A DNA stretch of 37,116 nt, taken from the UHGV virus genome UHGV-0272165. One strand, written 5' to 3'. Under the pieces are notes generated by a model. It searched no databases, was not told where the DNA came from, and saw only the letters and a list, made by a program, of their open reading frames with translations. The position numbers and the translations under genes are program-made. The stretch comes from a virus. Below are positions 1 to 37,116 of the stretch, one piece after another (the stretch's first letter is position 1; the number at the start of each line of letters is the position of its first letter).

Positions 1-12
1 ATCTCATTTAGC

Positions 13-40
13 ATAAGGCCAAAAGTTTTTTGGCCTTATA
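13..40 (-). terminator. Palindrome plus T-tract downstream of tailspike gene (possible intrinsic terminator)
   Basis: AAGGCCAAAA-G-TTTTTTGGCCTT near-perfect inverted repeat directly after the tailspike stop. Confidence 0.4.
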
Positions 41-85: not shown

Positions 86-1747
86 TTACCATCCTATAAT
101 GACATCAACACTGCCAACATCAACAGGTGATGGGCTAGTGTTTTGGAATGTAACACGAATCATGTCGTCTGATATTGCCAATACATCAGTTATAACCCCT
201 ATTGGCAGATCTCCTAACACCGTCATATTGATTGGAAGTTCATTTTCTATTTTATATCCAGTAGCTACCCTCTGAATTGAAAATCTAGAGTTTGGATTAA
301 TTGAACCAACATTAATTGTTGATTTAATTTTTTTCCCAGAAAACACGATATCATTGAAATCAACATGAGAGTTATTTATTAGCGAATCGGCAATAGAACC
401 TGAAAAATTGCTATTTATACCTACCTGTCTTAAAACTGAGTGTTTTTCAACCCTTACCCCATAATCCACTTTAGCTAAAGAGGCGTCGATATTATTTATT
501 GCGACAACAGCACCATCGACGCAGTTTATCGCATATTTTGCGCTCCCTAGCATAACAATATTTCTTAATGATAAATATGAGGAAAATTGGCTGGTAGCAA
601 ATGCTGAACCTTCACTTCCAACCATATAACAATCAGATATCTCTACAGATGATGAATAACGAGCCGCTACGCAAGACTGAGTTTTCGGTTTTATAATTGA
701 CAATTCTTTTATATAGCAAGATGAAGCATGCTCAACCTTAATTGAGTCTTCATTTGAATTGTATGATGAAAATGAAAAACCTTTCACGCTAGCTGCGTAA
801 ATACATTCCAGCGAAATATTTGCGTTAGTAATATGAACTTCATTGATACAAAACTGAGATCCAGAGCCAGAAACAAGAACCCCACAGACAGAGCCTCCAT
901 TTACAATTAAATTGTTTGCATCCCAAACTACGCAACTACCACATTGTGAATCAGGGTAGTATCCACCTCCGATAATGAGTCCGTAATCACCATCTGTTTC
1001 AATAGCAACATTTTTTATGCTGTATATATTTGATCTAAATTGTATTCCTTTTGTTGTTTTTATTATGGAATTTATTGGTTTTGCCACAACCCCGTTAACC
1101 GGGCCTGAAATTATACCATTGTGACTCATATCCAATGTTAAAACATTTCCATCCTTGGAAATTATCATCGCTCCACATGAAATGTCTCTCCTGCCAGAAA
1201 GTATACAATATTTACCAACATGAAAATTATCTGCATTCTGAACAGAAACTTTAAAAATACCAGTCAACACATCATAAGAAACATCATATACATTAACAGG
1301 ACTATAATCCACACCCAATATATTCAGAGGAATATTATCAAACTCATCATAATGTGAATAACCATCAGGAATGTGAATATACTGCCCGTATTCTATCTGT
1401 GATCTAAGCTGATCGGGATCGTACTTCAGCACATTAGGAAAATAGAACTGCAGAGCGCCGTACGCATCATAAACAGCCATAGAATGGCCTTGCACAGTTA
1501 CAAATTTGGCAATCTGTCCGTTATATACAGGGTAACCAGCAGCGTTAATGATGATTGGTTGCGAAACAGGAACGTGAGAACAGTCTTCGTTTTCCACATA
1601 AACCTGAATCTGGTTTTCAGGATTTACAGGGTCAGTGTCAATTTTACCGATATAAATTTTTCCATTGGCTACGGCTTTAAAAGAACGAGCCATAGTGAAG
1701 AGTTGCGAAGGCATGCTTACCACAACATTGGCTGTAATGTCTGTCAT
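86..1747 (-). CDS. Tailspike protein: P22 gp9-like N-terminal head-binding domain fused to a different beta-helix-type receptor-binding body
   Basis: N-terminal ~120 aa ([11 protein letters not shown]...[19 protein letters not shown]...[12 protein letters not shown]...NVLKYDPDQ) closely resembles the P22 tailspike N-terminus as I recall it; the remainder does not. Confidence 0.85.
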
Positions 1748-1911
1748 TTAATTTGCTCCAGACGTAGCAATGCCGAACAAGATGCAACTTGCCCTGCATT
1801 GCACTAATGTCAGTTATGATTTGTTAATTATGAGATGAGTCTATGCAAAGAGATCTGTTGAATATTGCGCTCTATATATTTGTTTTTTGCACGTTCCTGG
1901 TGTTTGCGAAG

Positions 1912-3909
1912 CTATTCTGACAACGCATCAGACTTAACACCCTGCGTCATAGCGTTAATAGCCTTTTGTGCCTGCTGCATGGCTTTCTCAAACGCTGTTG
2001 ATCCGTGTGTGGTATTTGCCATTCGTAGCATTGCATTTCTGAATGGCTCACTCTCATAGGCGCGAGCAAGAAGGCCGTAGCTTACTGCTGCGCCAGTTGT
2101 CGCCGGGTTCATTGCCGTACCATATCCGATAATGAACGGGATAGTTTGCTGCCCTGTTGGTGTTGTTACTGCCGCTTTTGCAGCCTGCTGCGTGGATTGC
2201 AGGTAGTTTTTCAATCCCCTCAGGTAAGCAGCATCCTGCCCCTTAAATGTGATACCCGTTTGGTTTTGCAGGATGTTAAGCTGTCGAAGGAACTGGTCAG
2301 GGGATCCACCTGATTTCTCTATCGCCTTTCCAATGATGCCATTGCGCATTTGCGCTCTTCCAACGCGACCAACTGAGTTATACAGCGTCTTAATTTCCGA
2401 TTTGTTCTTGCTGAATAGCATGTTATTCACAACTTCCGGCGTCAGGTCGCCTTTCATGAGAACATTCTTCAGCCTGGTATTCTTTAGTTTCGCCGCTTCG
2501 TCAGCGTAGACGGCATTGGCCTGCTGATATTTACGAAGAGTATCATTGCCAAGATTCTGACCAATGGCACCATTGATATCGTCGGTCATCGCCTTATAAA
2601 CGCGCTGAATGGCAGCATCGGAACGGTTTGGTAACACTGGTCGCTCACCCTTCACGTCCATTCTGAACTGACTGCGCAGGTCGCTTAATTGCTTCAAATC
2701 CAGATTTACCGGACCATCAGGGCCAGCATTGCGAACAAGCTCATCACGATATGACTGAAGTTTTGAAATTGTCTCGTTATCAGCCACCTTACCAAGCTTC
2801 TGCAGATTAGATATCTCAGTATCAATCTGCTGAATTGCTCGCGCAGGCTGAATGTTGACTCCCGCCATTGCATTCTGAACCTGCTCAAGACGGTTCCCAG
2901 CAGCACGACGAATTCCTGATGTTTTCGCTTTAAGGCTGTCAATAACAACCGCTGGATCATACTCACCGAATTTATCAGCAAATCTCTGCACCAACTGGCT
3001 TCTCGCTTCCTGTTGCGTTGCTCTCATTCCGCTTGTGCCAGCCAGAGGGATATTTTCTGCTGTAGTCTGCGCCATTTTTCCGACGCGGGAAGTGGGTTGT
3101 AACAGGTCTGTGGTGTGCAGAGGCACTCCTTCACGCTCTGCAAACCTGATAGCCTGTTGCGCTTCTGGCGCAATAGCACCACGAACACCACGATAAGCAG
3201 CACCTAATCCACGTCCGGCAGCGTTAATAGCTCCGCCAGCAAGAACGCCAACGCCTAAGTCGGTGGCTAGTGCTTCCGCATCATCTTTCACACTGTTTGC
3301 AGCAAGTGATCCAACTGCGTTTTCAGCGAGAAGGCGAGTTGCACCCTGAGCAATTCGACCAGCAAGTGTTGGTGCCTGTGCTGCCGCTCTCTCAACGCCA
3401 GCAGGGGTGAGGTAAGGCAATGCTTCAGCAAATATCCTTCCCTCTGTCGTTTGTGGAGTCAGCGCGCCTTGCTGAAGGCCAAAGTCCTGCTCTAATCCCT
3501 GAGTTGTTACTCGTGGAGCTGGTTGATATGTACCATCGCCAATGCCGAGTTTACCGCCAGCCCATGCCGCTGCGCTTGTTACAGCATCGGCAACTGATGC
3601 AGGTATGTTTGCCACGTTTACGCCAGCCTGCACCAGTCCGCGACCAGTCTCTTTCACTGCTTCACCAAGGTCAGACATAAATCCACTTTGCTGTGGTTGT
3701 TGCTGTGCTACTGGTTGCTGTGTCTCCACTGTCTGCACAGATGGCAATGGATAGGCAGCATAGAAAGCTTGCTTAGCCTGCTCTGCATTTTCTCCGGCTT
3801 GTGGTGCCACGACTTCATTGAAGTATTGCTCCTGAGCCTGCGCTTTTTGTTCTGGTGCTAACGCCTGATACTGTGGAGAGGCGATAACATCTTTCCATGC
3901 TTTAGCCAT
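1912..3909 (-). CDS. DNA ejection / internal virion protein (P22 gp16-like by position)
   Basis: 665-aa Ala/Gln-rich ORF immediately upstream of the tailspike, last of three consecutive ejection-protein-sized ORFs as in P22-like phages. Confidence 0.65.
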   Translation of the reverse strand: MAKAWKDVIASPQYQALAPEQKAQAQEQYFNEVVAPQAGENAEQAKQAFYAAYPLPSVQTVETQQPVAQQQPQQSGFMSDLGEAVKETGRGLVQAGVNVANIPASVADAVTSAAAWAGGKLGIGDGTYQPAPRVTTQGLEQDFGLQQGALTPQTTEGRIFAEALPYLTPAGVERAAAQAPTLAGRIAQGATRLLAENAVGSLAANSVKDDAEALATDLGVGVLAGGAINAAGRGLGAAYRGVRGAIAPEAQQAIRFAEREGVPLHTTDLLQPTSRVGKMAQTTAENIPLAGTSGMRATQQEARSQLVQRFADKFGEYDPAVVIDSLKAKTSGIRRAAGNRLEQVQNAMAGVNIQPARAIQQIDTEISNLQKLGKVADNETISKLQSYRDELVRNAGPDGPVNLDLKQLSDLRSQFRMDVKGERPVLPNRSDAAIQRVYKAMTDDINGAIGQNLGNDTLRKYQQANAVYADEAAKLKNTRLKNVLMKGDLTPEVVNNMLFSKNKSEIKTLYNSVGRVGRAQMRNGIIGKAIEKSGGSPDQFLRQLNILQNQTGITFKGQDAAYLRGLKNYLQSTQQAAKAAVTTPTGQQTIPFIIGYGTAMNPATTGAAVSYGLLARAYESEPFRNAMLRMANTTHGSTAFEKAMQQAQKAINAMTQGVKSDALSE

Positions 3910-5204
3910 TAATCACCCCATAGTGAAGAAAAATTACTGCCAGCAGGAGATTGTTGTCCTGGCGTATTCTGCACCGGCTCCTGGTAATCAAACTGTTTTT
4001 TAACAGTGCTCAACTTGCTTTCAAGCTGATTTCGAATCTTTCCGATAGAGTCACGAAAAGCCTTTTCACTCATTTTGGGGCTTAGAGCACCAACCGCATC
4101 GGATAATTTTTTACCCTCAGCATCTGAAAGAGCCCCCATCCCCTTCAGGGACTGCACCATAGGGAGGAAAGTTTGAGCTTTAAAGGTGTCGAGTCTTGCT
4201 TCAAAGTTAGCCGCATCAGATCCAGGAACTGTCGGAAACGCTGAGCGAATACCAACTGCTTTTGAAAGTCCAGGGCTTTGCTCTATCTCGTTGAGAGAAT
4301 CAAGCGCAGTGCTGAACGTATCAACAGCGCCCTGAGCGGCGGCCTGTCTGTCAGCACGAGCTATTTCAGCCTTTTGCCGAACATCTGCCTGTTTCTGCTT
4401 TAGCTCTTCAAGCTTTAACTGATTGCTTTCTCTGGCTATCTGTCTGTCCAGAGCCTTTTCTTGTAATTCTGCTCTTTGTATTTTGCGGGAAAGAGCAGCA
4501 TTCTGTACGCTGATGTTCTGGCCACGTATCTGGATGTCCTGACCTCGTGCTGTTAGTGCCTCGCCAGCCTGATTGCTGCGGATTGTCTCTGCCAGCCTAC
4601 CTCGGTCAATCTCACGACCAGCCATCTTGTCCTGAACATTGAAGTAATCAATCGGACCAAGAGCAGCCATCCCAAGGTGATCAACAAACTCACCAAATCC
4701 TGAAGGATTCTGCTGATACATCTGAGCAACGTTGTTAGGATCAACGCCGACGCGCGCCAGTTCCTTGGCGTTGTTTTGCAGCCAAGATTGCATTGCTTCT
4801 GGAGATGATGATGCAAGGCGAGCGCCAGCCGCTAAGGTGCCGATAGAATTGCGCTGGTCTTCATCAATGAATCCCATTCCTTTACGAACAGATTCAATCT
4901 GGTCTGGATATTGAGTAGCCAACTGACGCAAAGCACCACGATCACCAGACGCATAAGCATTAGCGTATGCCTGCTGAAATTCTTTCTGCCGCTGAGCCTG
5001 CTTTTCCTGCTGAAAAACACCCGCAATACCTGAAAGACCTTGCAATGCAGTCAGCCCAACATTGTTAGCGCCTGAACGCTCAATATCATTGTTCTGCCTG
5101 ATAAGCTGAAGCGTATTGCCGATGTCATTTACGCTAGGAGCGTTTGAGTTGACGCCACCGATACCAGCCAACAATCCGCCATTTGCTCCTTGCCAAGTAG
5201 CCAT
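3909..5204 (-). CDS. DNA ejection protein (P22 gp20-like by position)
   Basis: 431-aa ORF, start/stop-coupled to neighbours, coiled-coil-rich; synteny with P22-like ejection genes. Confidence 0.6.
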   Translation of the reverse strand: MATWQGANGGLLAGIGGVNSNAPSVNDIGNTLQLIRQNNDIERSGANNVGLTALQGLSGIAGVFQQEKQAQRQKEFQQAYANAYASGDRGALRQLATQYPDQIESVRKGMGFIDEDQRNSIGTLAAGARLASSSPEAMQSWLQNNAKELARVGVDPNNVAQMYQQNPSGFGEFVDHLGMAALGPIDYFNVQDKMAGREIDRGRLAETIRSNQAGEALTARGQDIQIRGQNISVQNAALSRKIQRAELQEKALDRQIARESNQLKLEELKQKQADVRQKAEIARADRQAAAQGAVDTFSTALDSLNEIEQSPGLSKAVGIRSAFPTVPGSDAANFEARLDTFKAQTFLPMVQSLKGMGALSDAEGKKLSDAVGALSPKMSEKAFRDSIGKIRNQLESKLSTVKKQFDYQEPVQNTPGQQSPAGSNFSSLWGD

Positions 5205-5911: not shown

Positions 5912-6367
5912 CTATCTCCCGTGATTCAGGAAGTCGATTAGTTCTTCGCGTGTGGCGCTGTAAAACGTCACGTCATCCACGCCTTTGAAGTATTTCTTGA
6001 TGGTTCCTACACGCTTAAGACCAATCATTGCGCAGTACATCTGCCCGTGGCGGAATTTGCGTGCGGCGAACGATGTGACGCACTGAACGGTGGTGTTAGT
6101 CAGAATGTATCGCCAGAACGCCAGCCCGATTTCCTTGCTGAATCCACGAACCTCTGGCAGGTACATGGCGTGGCAATCGAATGTCAGCGGCTGAATCTCC
6201 TGATAGTAAACAATGCCGCCGAACTGCCCGTGCACGTTCACCTCAAAGTAACGGCATTCAGGTTTGTAGTCGTATCCATCACCGTTATTGCTCCCGGCGA
6301 TAATGTCAGGGTGATTTCCGACTGCTTCTATCAGGTCGATGTTTCGCGTTGGTTTGAATGTAATCAT
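5912..6367 (-). CDS. Virion-associated protein between needle and ejection genes (gp14 position)
   Basis: 151-aa ORF; position only, sequence not recognised. Confidence 0.45.
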   Translation of the reverse strand: MITFKPTRNIDLIEAVGNHPDIIAGSNNGDGYDYKPECRYFEVNVHGQFGGIVYYQEIQPLTFDCHAMYLPEVRGFSKEIGLAFWRYILTNTTVQCVTSFAARKFRHGQMYCAMIGLKRVGTIKKYFKGVDDVTFYSATREELIDFLNHGR

Positions 6368-7068
6368 CAGTCAATCAGCCCATGTAATCTAAGTGCTGTT
6401 TCAAGCGCCAGAATACGCTGCCGCGCCTGCTGCAAACCTGTTGCGAGAGCTGCGACTTCGGATTGCGTGTACGTAGTGCCGACAGTGTATGACTGGTTTG
6501 CGTTGAATGAGCCAAGAAGTGGCGTACCTGTGGCTGCAGTCCATCCAGTCTGTCTTGCTCCAACTACCTGAATTCCATCAACTGAATATGATGTTTTTAC
6601 ATCCAGCGGTGACGCAAGAGACTGCGATTCTGTTACGGTTTTCGATACGTAATCACTCTTAATGCCAGAGACATCGTTTTCTACGTCATCCAGTCTTTGG
6701 TCAACAGTGACCAGATGCGCCTGAATATCGATAACCTCATCCAGCAAGTAATCAACATCGCTACGCAGTACGACTATCTTCCCTTCGGCGGTTGTTAACC
6801 TGACCTCAAGGAGATTTATCGCTTTTGTGTTTGCGGTGATTCTTGCATCGTGATCTGCCAGTTCGACGTCCTGTTCATCGTTTTTCACCTGAGCATCGTA
6901 AGCGCCCTGACCAGCCTGATTTGCCTTCCCGGCAATTGCGCCGACATCAGCACCTTGATTTATGACATACAGCAGGTAAGACTGGCTGAATATATTGCGT
7001 GGCAAAATTGAAGCATCAAGGCGCGTAGCCTGAACCACGACAGGATCATTCAGTGATGAATCAACCAT
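6367..7068 (-). CDS. Tail needle protein (P22 gp26-like)
   Basis: N-terminus ([30 protein letters not shown]...[20 protein letters not shown]...ITANTKAI) matches remembered P22 gp26; coiled-coil heptads. Confidence 0.85.
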
Positions 7069-16205: not shown

Positions 16206-16937
16206 TTAATCATTTCGTGTCAAAATCGCATCAATCACTGGCTGAATAGGAAACCCGATGCCAATGCCTGGATTTGCATTAGACTCTAATAATTTTACTA
16301 TAGTGGCTAGTGACTCAGCATAGAGTGAATTAATCCTAGCAAAGTCAACACCACCAAACCTCACATTCACTTGCATATTAGCCAACTCCCTCAAGAGATC
16401 TTTGGCCTGATCAGCAATGGCGTCGGCTTCATCTTTGCCAGGGTATCTTCTCTGCGTGACGATACCCACCACATTCCCAGTTTCAAGATTAACGATAGGG
16501 CCGCCAGAATTACCACCATTTACCATCCCATCGATAGAAAATTTTCCATCTTCAAGCGGCGAAGAGACTATTGCTTCGCCTATTAATAATTGAGGAAAAC
16601 CGTGAGGATACCCAGCAAAAATCAATCGTAATCCCCTGGAAGGGGTGAAATTGGTACAAGGTTGCAATACTACTCTGTCGGGAGGTAATGATTCTGAAAT
16701 GCGCATGACAGCAAAATCATATTGAATATCAACATGAATAATCTGGGCCAAAATATTCTGTCCAGATTCAGTTATTAGAGTGGCCGGGCCAAGTATCCGG
16801 CTATTTTGCAGATCAACCAAGGGTTTTACAACGTGAAAGTTTGTGATCACCAAATCCTCTCGTAAAAAACTAAAACCACTTCCGCAAGATGTACCTGCAA
16901 TGACCTGAAATGTTGCATTGGCTAAGTGTTGATGCAT
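16206..16937 (-). CDS. Trypsin-like (S1 family) serine protease, cytoplasmic, no signal peptide
   Basis: His (ITNFHVV), Asp (DFAVMRI) and Ser (GGNSGGPIV) motifs in S1 order; strong SD (GGAGG 7 nt upstream); lower GC than flanking phage genes. Confidence 0.8.
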   Translation of the reverse strand: MHQHLANATFQVIAGTSCGSGFSFLREDLVITNFHVVKPLVDLQNSRILGPATLITESGQNILAQIIHVDIQYDFAVMRISESLPPDRVVLQPCTNFTPSRGLRLIFAGYPHGFPQLLIGEAIVSSPLEDGKFSIDGMVNGGNSGGPIVNLETGNVVGIVTQRRYPGKDEADAIADQAKDLLRELANMQVNVRFGGVDFARINSLYAESLATIVKLLESNANPGIGIGFPIQPVIDAILTRND

Positions 16938-34230: not shown

Positions 34231-34507
34231 CCTGCAACTTTCCGTCAAAGGTGAATACTTCGATGCCATGATTCGTGGAGAGAAAACGGAAGAGTATCGC
34301 CTGTGTAATGACTACTGGAATAAGCGAATTATGTTCCGGGAGTATGACCGCCTGATTATCACAAAGGGATATCCGAAGCGCGACGATTCCAGCCGTAGAA
34401 TTGATGTTCCGTATGACGGATATGAAATCAAGACAATCACACATCCGCACTTCGGTGATAAACCGGTAAAGGTGTTCGCGATAAAGGTGAATATCGGCAA
34501 TGAATAA
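34223..34507 (+). CDS. ASCH-domain-like protein (tentative)
   Basis: GTG start after AGGAGG; GEKTEEYR fits the ASCH G-x-K-x-x-E-x-R signature. Confidence 0.45.
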   Translation: MANLQLSVKGEYFDAMIRGEKTEEYRLCNDYWNKRIMFREYDRLIITKGYPKRDDSSRRIDVPYDGYEIKTITHPHFGDKPVKVFAIKVNIGNE

Positions 34508-34578
34508 CAATCCTCGCAATAGCGGGGATTTCTTTTATCTGAACTCGCTACGGCGGGTTTTGTTTTATGGAGATGATT

Positions 34579-34878
34579 ATGGCCTGTTCAACATTCAACC
34601 CTCTAACGTTACAGAAATACCAGCCAGCCCCTGAAGATTTATGCTCACTGTGTGGCGGAAATCATGGAAAAGCCGCCATGATCGAATGTAAGGACAAAAT
34701 CCACATTTGCCTTAATTGCGTTGATGTCCTCGTTGATATCAAAAATGAGAGAGAAGATAAAAAGCGTAGCGAGGCTATTCGCGCATTAGATTCATGGATG
34801 CGAGATGGGTATAGTGCTGCGCAAATTTATGACCTCGCAATATCAAAAGGCGAAATACCAGGTGTGCGAATCGAATAA
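34579..34878 (+). CDS. Hypothetical zinc-finger-like protein
   Basis: Start at ATG after GGAGA; CSLCGG...HICLNC Cys/His cluster. Confidence 0.4.
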   Translation: MACSTFNPLTLQKYQPAPEDLCSLCGGNHGKAAMIECKDKIHICLNCVDVLVDIKNEREDKKRSEAIRALDSWMRDGYSAAQIYDLAISKGEIPGVRIE

Positions 34879-34898
34879 GAAGCGCACTCAAGCATCTT

Positions 34899-35081
34899 TT
34901 GGAAAAATCACAAATGCACTTCCGAGTCACAGGTGAATGGAATGGAGAGCCATTCAACAGAGTTATCGAAGCAGAGGACATCAACGACTGCTATGACCAC
35001 TGGATGCTGTGGGCGCAGATAGCACATGCAGACGTAACCAATATTCGAATTGAAGAACTGAAAGAACACCAAGCCGCCTGA
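34899..35081 (+). CDS. Hypothetical small protein (60 aa)
   Basis: ORF only; followed by a terminator-like hairpin. Confidence 0.3.
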   Translation: MEKSQMHFRVTGEWNGEPFNRVIEAEDINDCYDHWMLWAQIAHADVTNIRIEELKEHQAA

Positions 35082-35092
35082 TGGCGGTTTTT
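35068..35092 (+). terminator. Intrinsic terminator-like hairpin
   Basis: GCCGCC-TGAT-GGCGG followed by TTTTTTAT. Confidence 0.45.
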
Positions 35093-35103
35093 TATTACCT
35101 GAT

Positions 35104-35119
35104 TTGCAGGTTCGATTCC
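35104..35119 (+). other. tRNA T-arm-like fragment (TTGCAGGTTCGATTCC), possible att-site remnant
   Basis: 16-mer matching the T-arm of tRNA-Arg (argW) as I recall it; no complementary stem follows. Confidence 0.35.
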
Positions 35120-35138
35120 CTATTCGGAGATAGCACTC

Positions 35139-35339
35139 ATGCAACACGAACTACAGCCTGATTCACTGGTTGATTTGAAATTCATCATGGCTGATACTGG
35201 CTTCGGTAAAACCTTCATCTATGACCGGATTAAGTCCGGCGACCTGCCAAAAGCCAAAGTTATCCACGGGCGAGCAAGATGGTTATATCGTGACCATTGT
35301 GAATTCAAAAATAAGCTCTTAAGCCGCGCCAATGGGTAA
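35139..35339 (+). CDS. AlpA/Xis-family small DNA-binding protein (putative excisionase)
   Basis: 66 aa with AlpA-like pattern (TGFGKTFIYDRIKSGDLPKAKVIHGRARWLYRD); last phage-like gene before the att-like sequence. Confidence 0.55.
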   Translation: MQHELQPDSLVDLKFIMADTGFGKTFIYDRIKSGDLPKAKVIHGRARWLYRDHCEFKNKLLSRANG

Positions 35340-35412
35340 AATAGCGGGTAAAATATTTCTCACATCTAAAAAATACCATTCCAATCAATCCCCTGCCGCT
35401 TCAAGTAGATGT

Positions 35413-35427
35413 CTGCAGGGGACACCA
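35413..35427 (+). other. tRNA 3'-end-like core (CTGCAGGGGACACCA); probable prophage-host junction
   Basis: 15-mer matching the 3' end of tRNA-Arg (argW) from memory, with no upstream tRNA body; phage-like sequence to the left, host-like to the right. Confidence 0.45.
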
Positions 35428-35868
35428 GATACCCTTCTAACAATATCTACCTTCGCCCCGTAAAAGATGGGTTTGGCAGCACACTTGCCCTATATCTACT
35501 CATTTTTACTGCAACAGGTTGAAATCTCAGCACTGTCAGAAAGCGCTGATGACTAAACAGCCCTGGGCCGGGCGATGTAACCATCACACAGAATCCTGAT
35601 AGCGAAATATGGCGTGACTCGATACTTCACTCTGCAATGCATTCCTTGATGAATTCGCAGGCCCGTGATACACGGGACAGGTCGCTGAATGACGACAATG
35701 TCCTGGAAATCAGCGAACCGCGTATCCGGAGTACATTTGAGCGACTGTACCAGAACATGAATGAGGCGTTTGGATTAGGTGATTATTAGTTGGGCTAAGC
35801 ATTTTAGTATTATTATTTTCCGGTTGAGGGATATGGAGATATCGACAACAACCGGAAAAAGTTTACGT

Positions 35869-37116
35869 CTATATTGCTGAAGGTACAGGCGTTTCCATCA
35901 CTATTTGCTCGCGTTTTTTACTCAGGAAGAAAATGCCAAATAGCAACATCAGGCAGACAATACCCGAAATTGCGAAGAAAACTGTCTGGTAGCCTGCGTG
36001 GTCAAAGAGTATCCCAGTCGGCGTTGAAAGCAGCACAATCCCAAGCGAACTGGCAATTTGAAAACCAATCAGAAAGATCGTCGACGACAGGCGCTTATCA
36101 AAGTTTGCCACGCTGTATTTGAAGACGGATATGACACAAAGTGGAACCTCAATGGCATGTAACAGCTTCACTAATGAAATAATCCAGGGGTTAACGAACA
36201 GCGCGCAGGAAAGGATACGCAACGCCATAATCACAACACCGATAAGTAATGCATTTTTTGGCCCTACCCGATTCACAAAGAAAGGAATAATCGCCATGCA
36301 CAGCGCTTCGAGTACCACCTGGAATGAGTTGAGATAACCATACAGGCGCGTTCCTACATCGTGTGATTCGAATAAACCTGCATAAAAGACAGGAAAGAAT
36401 TGTTGATCAAAAATGTTATAGAAAGACCACGTCCCCACAATAAATATGACGAAAACCCAGAAGTTTCGATCCTTGAAAACTGCGATAAAATCCTCTTTTT
36501 TTACCCCTCCCGCATCCGCCGCTATGCACTGGTGATCCTTATCTTTAAAACGCATGTTGATCATCATAAATACAGCGCCAAATAGCGAGACCAACCAGAA
36601 GTTGATATGGGGACTGATACTAAAAAATATACCGGCAAAGAACGCGCCAATAGCATAGCCAAAAGATCCCCAGGCGCGCGCTGTTCCATATTCGAAATGA
36701 AAATTTCGCGCCATTTTTTCAGTGAAGCTGTCAAGCAAACCGCAGCCCGCCAGATAACCCAGACCAAAAAAGAGCGCACCCAGAATTAGACCTACAGAAA
36801 AATTGCTTTGCAGTAACGGTTCATAAACGTAAATCATAAACGGTCCAGTCAAGACCAGAATGAAACTCATACACCAGATGAGCGGTTTCTTCAGACCGAG
36901 TTTATCCTGAACGATGCCGTAGAACATCATAAATAGAATGCTGGTAAACTGGTTGACCGAGTAAAGTGTACCTAATTCCGTCCCTGTTAATCCTAGATGT
37001 CCTTTCAGCCAAATAGCGTATAATGACCACCACAGCGACCAGGAAATAAAAAAGAGAAATGAGTAACTGGATGCCAAACGATAGTACGCATTTCTGAATG
37101 GAATATTCAGTGCCAT
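35869..37116 (-). CDS. cscB: LacY-family (oligosaccharide:H+ symporter) MFS sugar permease, probably sucrose permease CscB
   Basis: 415 aa, 12 hydrophobic segments; strong resemblance to LacY (GTRLYGYLNSFQ, NRVGPKNALL); N-terminus MALNIPFRNAYYR matches my recollection of CscB. Confidence 0.7.
   Translation of the reverse strand: MALNIPFRNAYYRLASSYSFLFFISWSLWWSLYAIWLKGHLGLTGTELGTLYSVNQFTSILFMMFYGIVQDKLGLKKPLIWCMSFILVLTGPFMIYVYEPLLQSNFSVGLILGALFFGLGYLAGCGLLDSFTEKMARNFHFEYGTARAWGSFGYAIGAFFAGIFFSISPHINFWLVSLFGAVFMMINMRFKDKDHQCIAADAGGVKKEDFIAVFKDRNFWVFVIFIVGTWSFYNIFDQQFFPVFYAGLFESHDVGTRLYGYLNSFQVVLEALCMAIIPFFVNRVGPKNALLIGVVIMALRILSCALFVNPWIISLVKLLHAIEVPLCVISVFKYSVANFDKRLSSTIFLIGFQIASSLGIVLLSTPTGILFDHAGYQTVFFAISGIVCLMLLFGIFFLSKKREQIVMETPVPSAI

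Follow-up and report, generated by a model that had tools for sequence, protein, structure and literature searches.

A P22-like tailspike gene that joins an Sf6-type head-binding domain to a rare module of predicted beta-helix fold

Introduction

Among P22-like phages, the described tailspikes closest to the one studied here are those of Sf6, P22 and the E. coli K1 prophage CUS-3. The Sf6 tailspike gp14 is an endorhamnosidase (7sg7, 2vbk) with a beta-helix body; its gene is preceded by no immI block and is followed, in a convergent layout, by the gene for the membrane acetyltransferase Oac and by int. P22 gp9, an endorhamnosidase of glycoside hydrolase family 90 (GH90), combines a head-binding domain with a beta-helix and is encoded after gene 16, with sieA-mnt-arc-ant between genes 16 and 9 and gtrABC after gene 9. 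CUS-3, a P22-like prophage at argW, has an endosialidase as its spike body, retains an immI-like mnt/ant block before the spike gene and carries, between tailspike and int, the hexapeptide O-acetyltransferase gene neuO, which is co-directional with the spike gene and phase-variable via heptanucleotide repeats. Here, we analyse a tailspike gene in the virus genome UHGV-0272165, a stretch of 37,116 nucleotides (nt) referred to below as the window. A first-pass annotation, made from the letters of the window alone, had described this gene as a chimera in which a P22-type head-binding domain of ~120 residues precedes an unrelated, beta-helix-like body that would recognize a different surface polysaccharide.

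With Sf6, the locus shares the head-binding domain, the upstream genes and the spacer before the tailspike gene, the absence of immI, the convergent order of tailspike, acetyltransferase and int, and a beta-helix body. It differs from Sf6 in that the receptor module is unrelated in sequence, shorter and equipped with an extra small beta domain, and in that the putative modifying enzyme is a soluble hexapeptide acetyltransferase. P22 has in common with it the head-binding domain, the overall architecture and the position of the gene, but the two spikes do not align past residue 117, and neither the P22 immI genes nor gtrABC are found at this locus. The CUS-3 head-binding domain is 96.5% identical and its O-acetyltransferase occupies the same position; unlike CUS-3, the locus described here has no endosialidase body, no immI-like block and no co-directional, repeat-bearing modifier gene. 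Identity to every characterised module of the coliphage O-antigen tailspikes (CBA120 TSP1-4, G7C-type, HK620; PMC10408124) is at most 13%.

Results

The tailspike gene is a chimera in which an Sf6-type head-binding domain ends at codon 115 and a receptor module of unrelated sequence begins at codon 116 (coordinates of all features are given in Table 1). The single intact open reading frame (ORF) starts with ATG, with GGAG 8 nt upstream. Pfam PF09008 (Head_binding) matched residues 1-113 over the full profile with E 4.1e-65 and 217.5 bits, well above the gathering cut-off of 24, as expected for the head-binding domain of a P22-like (Lederbergvirus) tailspike. The best solved chain was Sf6 gp14 (7sg7, E 6.6e-63), which aligned with residues 1 to ~117 only and is identical at 103 of the 115 head-binding residues (90%). 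Chains of P22 gp9 came second (E 1e-47 to 1e-49), and here again the head-binding constructs and the full-length structures (2xc1, 8tvr) aligned over residues 1-117 only. At least 24 public contigs encode exactly this tailspike protein, every time after gp7/gp20/gp16-like genes. Two plus-strand ORFs that overlap the tailspike region (99..275 and 1484..1807) were unsupported and were taken as noise.

At the DNA level, 22-30 of each 30 nt match Sf6 gene 14 above window position 1402, whereas below it the count drops to 10-18, the random level. The megablast match to Sf6 ends at window position 1409, and the joint lies just past the YDPDQ motif. GC content is 0.505 in the gp16-like gene and falls to 0.42 over the head-binding part of the tailspike gene and to 0.35 over its body. 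The receptor module was gained through recombination directly after the head-binding domain.

Searches with residues 116-553 returned only noise from sequences in the PDB, both with the single sequence and with an eight-sequence profile. No Pfam family matched, the only PHROGs match was non-significant (E 0.05), and NCBIfam gave spurious matches only (profile and single-sequence searches). BLASTP of the module against the Sf6 receptor domain gave E 0.85, and no homology to the GH90 catalytic beta-helix of P22 gp9 (gp9 residues ~120-666) was detected. The first-pass annotation had named an alignment of the C-terminal region along P22 gp9 as the observation that would contradict it; with the P22 chains stopping at residue 117, both its head-binding domain and its divergent body beyond ~residue 120 are borne out.

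The annotation had also proposed to predict the structure of the body and to compare it with known tailspike depolymerases. A first full-length model, built from a four-sequence alignment, reached a predicted local distance difference test score (pLDDT) of 52 and was discarded. Modelled alone, as a monomer, from an eight-sequence alignment (A2), the module gave a mean pLDDT of 86.3 and a predicted template modelling score (pTM) of 0.76. In the model, a small N-proximal beta domain is followed by a right-handed parallel beta-helix, and a beta-sandwich forms the C-terminal part. The small domain is kept in all eight family members regardless of their N-terminal anchor, the helix region is matched by Pfam Beta_helix at the equivalent place in two of the eight, and the sandwich carries the motifs SGKK, DLPxG and RVxFxN, conserved in the eight-sequence alignment. 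The three-stranded rungs superpose on known members of the pectate-lyase-like right-handed beta-helix superfamily, and a C-terminal body of this kind is what a P22-like tailspike would have. Foldseek matches included the spikes of Sf6 (E 4e-6 for its beta-helix body) and HK620, LKA1 gp49 and the Klebsiella K1 lyase, and among viral models the tail fibre of phage IMM-002 ranked first (TMq 0.61, 15% identity). The predicted fold is the usual one of tailspike depolymerases, a fold that does not identify the chemistry.

Invariant helix residues in the eight sequences, numbered as in the full-length protein, are D334, K337, E339, Y345, R363, Y364, E369, Q387, Y391, S393, R395 and D411. Carboxylates separated by ~30-35 residues lie one rung apart, which is about the distance between D334/E339 and E369; such a spacing would resemble that of the acid pairs in the spikes of P22, Sf6 and HK620. 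D334/E339 and E369 are candidate catalytic residues, with D411 as a further candidate.

The module is rare. When 1.84 billion representatives were searched exhaustively with HMMER, only seven relatives emerged (77, 59, 39, 35, 31, 30 and 33% identical); P0006 was the only sequence added by a second, word-indexed homology search with the profile. The module gave no match in 50,697 phage records searched by tblastn or in 185,579 GTDB species-representative genomes scanned with the single protein and with a three-sequence alignment; it was found on five IMG/VR contigs, as three clusters in a set of 5.8 billion proteins and in one of 5,426 complete E. coli genomes (strain 1190). Sequence conservation in the eight-sequence alignment is consistent with selection. 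In one relative, P0003, a 60% identical module follows a PF18668 Tail_spike_N anchor (CBA120 TSP1/G7C gp66 type) instead of the head-binding domain, and the modules of P0004 to P0008 carry other N-termini.

A second mosaic joint lies inside the module. The protein in the window and P0002, which has the head-binding domain, are 99.5% identical over residues 116-299 but 62% identical over residues 300-553. Over the latter range, P0002 and P0003 are 76% identical, so the distal part of P0002 is nearer to P0003 than to the window. The break in identity at residue 300 therefore indicates that the distal helix and the C-terminal domain have been exchanged separately.

Table 1. Features at the tailspike locus (positions in the window; a point marks a feature given without strand)
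Feature	Position	Strand	Basis or remark
Tailspike coding sequence	86..1747	-	553 aa, single intact ORF, stop codon 86-88
Head-binding (tail-docking) domain, residues 1-115	1403..1747	-	Pfam PF09008, Sf6 gp14 identity, P22/Sf6 structure alignments
Recombination joint, codon 115/116 (between YDPDQLR and SQ)	1400..1404	-	identity and GC break versus Sf6 gene 14
Receptor-binding/depolymerase module, residues 116-553 (predicted function)	89..1402	-	
Small N-proximal beta domain, ~residues 140-205	1133..1330	-	model residues ~25-90, pLDDT mostly >84
Right-handed beta-helix, ~residues 221-465	353..1087	-	regular short-strand rungs, model residues ~106-350
Second mosaic joint inside module, near residue 299/300	848..852	-	window versus P0002 and P0003 identities
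C-terminal beta-sandwich, ~residues 473-552	92..331	-	strands at model residues ~358-437
13-bp perfect hairpin, tailspike/acetyltransferase intergenic	12..40	.	arms AUAAGGCCAAAAA/UUUUUGGCCUUAU; RNA fold -19.5 kcal/mol, z -3.07
Sf6-type spacer between gp16-like gene and tailspike, without immI	1748..1911	-	164 bp, same length as Sf6 gene 13-gene 14 spacer
gp16-like DNA-ejection protein	1912..3909	-	665 aa; 93.5% DNA identity to Sf6 gene 13

The window ends 85 bp beyond the tailspike stop codon. Two contigs, L004 and L008, match it with 99.98-99.99% identity over 11,747 bp, up to its base 1, and continue past this point with a convergent gene for a 197-aa hexapeptide acetyltransferase, followed by intS and by yfdC/argW-side host genes. 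The acetyltransferase gene lies 85 bp past the tailspike stop (L004:11748-12341, minus strand; L001:8407-9000) and is present in all six listed contigs that encode the exact spike as well as in E. coli strain 1190. The remark in the first-pass annotation that no O-antigen modification genes follow the tailspike within the window is therefore literally correct but misleading: the seroconversion/modification slot is occupied by a putative modification gene, and the window ends before it. The best NCBIfam matches of the enzyme are WbbJ (E 1e-15), maltose O-acetyltransferase and WcaF, all below cut-offs; among solved structures, it is closest to two capsule sialate O-acetyltransferases, OatWY (2wlc, E 7e-31) and NeuO (3jqy, E 2e-20). 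It is 33% identical to NeuO of CUS-3, whose gene occupies the equivalent position in that argW prophage; phase-variable tandem repeats of the neuO type were not found in the gene.

Since L004 becomes homologous to Sf6 and CUS-3 again at the 3' end of int, the exchanged unit comprises the receptor module together with the acetyltransferase gene, ~2.3 kb in all. GC content is low throughout this cassette (0.35 in the module, 0.34 in the acetyltransferase gene and 0.19-0.22 in the AT-rich spacers). Both module and acetyltransferase occur in the same single genome among the complete E. coli genomes searched, and the loci of the 78% variant spike (P0002) lack the acetyltransferase. The hairpin between the convergent genes may be a bidirectional terminator; for want of a clean U tract, it was not called in a consensus terminator scan. 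On one exact-spike contig (L007:11748-21662), the acetyltransferase is followed by tor-region-like genes instead of intS/argW, with Pfam domains for a periplasmic binding protein, a response regulator, a multihaem cytochrome c, a molybdopterin oxidoreductase, a chaperone and MerR-like and DnaJ-like proteins. These genes suggest the torT-torRCAD-cbpMA region; their presence could stem from chimeric assembly, from rearrangement or from a second context of integration.

Upstream, the tailspike gene follows gp7/gp20/gp16 ejection genes collinear with Sf6 genes 11-14, the arrangement of a P22-type virion module. A gp16-like product identical to that of the window carries the precomputed domain PF26808 (Phage_P22_gp16) in L004, and products encoded further upstream match Pfam Inj_translocase (P22 gp20) and P22_gp7. 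Megablast aligned window positions 1409-4000 with Sf6 in one unbroken piece at 93.5% identity (genes 12 and 13 and the beginning of gene 14), and within the spacer 25-29 of each 30 nt are identical (~90% overall). There are no sieA, mnt, arc or ant genes between the gp16-like gene and the tailspike, the spacer being too short for any of them. The first-pass annotation had noted this absence, with a spacer of 165 bp (164 bp by our count). The absence stands but is not noteworthy, because Sf6 has a spacer of the same length and the identity runs through it unbroken; it is the ancestral Sf6-type layout and neither a special loss nor a feature linked to the chimera. Among relatives, immI presence varies independently of the chimera: the P0002 variant spike (loci L003 and L014) does follow an immI block of SieA, Arc/Mnt and Ant.

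The window carries terminase, portal, scaffold, coat, gp4/10/26/14/7/20/16 and lysis genes, which make up a full set. At its right end (35869-37116, minus strand) is a complete gene for a LacY-family oligosaccharide transporter of the major facilitator superfamily, 97% identical to E. coli chromosomes. This end and positions 34500-35800 are host or attR-side DNA, and torI (excisionase-like) is annotated in the 97% identical E. coli genomes, which places the prophage at the argW/KplE1 site. Strain 1190 (canine, Edinburgh), the one complete genome with the cassette, has an O-antigen cluster annotated with O166-family genes for the flippase Wzx and the polymerase Wzy (wzx and wzy), four glycosyltransferase genes and galE. 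Because spikes of Lederbergvirus prophages track the O-serogroup of their lysogen (published surveys, PMC10408124), O166-type O-antigen is our best guess for the receptor, an assignment that we make tentatively. No O166-specific spike was reported in the tailspike literature searched.

Two further observations concern the virion and lysis regions. The gene at the tail-needle position (6367-7068, minus strand) encodes 233 aa and lacks the knob domain. A 317-aa version with Phage_tail_NK is found on other contigs that carry this spike; the virion module is itself mosaic among spike carriers. A gene for a 243-aa trypsin-like serine peptidase (16206-16937, minus strand; Pfam Trypsin_2) lies in an island of low GC content (0.41), with the lysis genes on one side and the small terminase gene on the other. 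Of the PADLOC 'RT-Protease_XI' models, only the protease part is matched (E 1e-12), and the gene may be a moron or defence-related.

Discussion

We consider it probable, taken as one statement, that the product of the gene is the tailspike of a Lederbergvirus (P22-like) prophage of the Sf6 type, integrated at argW in Escherichia, and that this spike binds polysaccharide and probably hydrolyses it. That the gene specifies a functional beta-helix tailspike we hold with high confidence. Residues 1-115 would dock the spike, presumably a trimer, onto the tail hub. Residues 116-553 form an exchangeable module which, if the spikes of P22, Sf6 and HK620 are a guide, would bind the polysaccharide on the host surface and most probably cleave it, bringing the virion to the outer membrane. 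Endoglycosidase hydrolysis is the likeliest chemistry, and the likeliest substrate would be the O-antigen of the lysogen itself, the only typed lysogen having an O166-family cluster. The module came within the low-GC cassette, which also bears an acetyltransferase in the seroconversion slot (oac in Sf6, neuO in CUS-3). The chimera proposed by the first-pass annotation holds, and a receptor unlike those of P22 and Sf6 is a reasonable expectation from it.

Several points weigh against this interpretation. Enzymatic activity and glycan binding are attributed to the module family by analogy. The model is that of a monomer, not of the presumed trimer. Its structural matches are 13% identical or less, apart from the 15% for IMM-002, and the predicted fold does not separate hydrolases from lyases, epimerase-like enzymes or proteins that only bind. 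The O166 assignment comes from one genome and the PGAP label 'O166 family', and the acetyltransferase, nearest in sequence to capsule sialate enzymes, would be as compatible with a capsule target as with an O-antigen one.

The last point bears on the alternative that survives best, although we regard it as unlikely: the module might target a capsular (K-antigen) or other exopolysaccharide, as the endosialidase spike of CUS-3 does, and the acetyltransferase might modify that capsule. The relationship of the enzyme to OatWY and NeuO, its position in the neuO slot and the many capsule depolymerases among the top fold matches are consistent with such a target. However, the module has no similarity to endosialidases, its beta-helix matches to O-antigen spikes (CBA120, Sf6, HK620) are equally good, and hexapeptide acetyltransferases of this size include O-antigen enzymes, WbbJ being the top NCBIfam match.

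A somewhat smaller chance attaches to a module that binds polysaccharide without cleaving it, or that acts as a lyase or esterase and not as a glycoside hydrolase. Such activities would be compatible with the fold, but the O166-family cluster of strain 1190 contains no uronic-acid pathway gene and lyases need uronic acids, while invariant carboxylates one rung apart, which would resemble the acid pairs in the spikes of P22, Sf6 and HK620, would speak against such activities.

It is very improbable that the gene is a decaying, functionless remnant in a defective prophage. Degradation is frequent among argW prophages (CPS-53/KplE1), and in L007 the cassette abuts tor genes and not int. Against decay speak the intact 553-codon ORF with its Shine-Dalgarno sequence, the recurrence of the identical protein on contigs from different samples, the full complement of virion and lysis genes and the conservation within the family. 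Finally, the idea that the spike has merely diverged from P22 gp9 or Sf6 gp14 and keeps the same specificity can be dismissed as already refuted at the sequence level, since the N-terminal domain and a generic beta-helix fold are all that is shared, whereas the chains align to residues 1-117 only, the module finds the Sf6 receptor domain only at E 0.85, DNA identity is at the random level past codon 115 and the module has 438 aa as against ~510-550, with its extra N-proximal beta domain.

Exchange of receptor domains directly after the head-binding domain is textbook behaviour for tailspikes of P22-like phages, and the architecture is unsurprising. What the locus adds is a rare, uncharacterised subtype of receptor module to the catalogue used for host-range prediction and for the engineering of O-antigen-specific depolymerases, and a clean case in which a spike body and a putative glycan-modifying gene swap together, as a single cassette bounded by the head-binding domain and int. 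A bolder possibility, which we find rather doubtful, is that the module founds an uncharacterised depolymerase family, comprising eight sequence clusters (that of the window and seven library representatives) in ~15 billion proteins, and travels with the acetyltransferase as a receptor-plus-seroconversion cassette for O166/O66-type O-antigen. If so, the acetyltransferase would modify the same glycan that the spike cleaves, the joint at residue 300 would reflect a change of substrate, between forms with and without acetylation or between other variants, and P22-like phages would have, beside membrane Oac and GtrABC, a route to O-antigen seroconversion through a cytoplasmic acetyltransferase. 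Should the O166 link hold, the module could be used as a serogroup-specific reagent.
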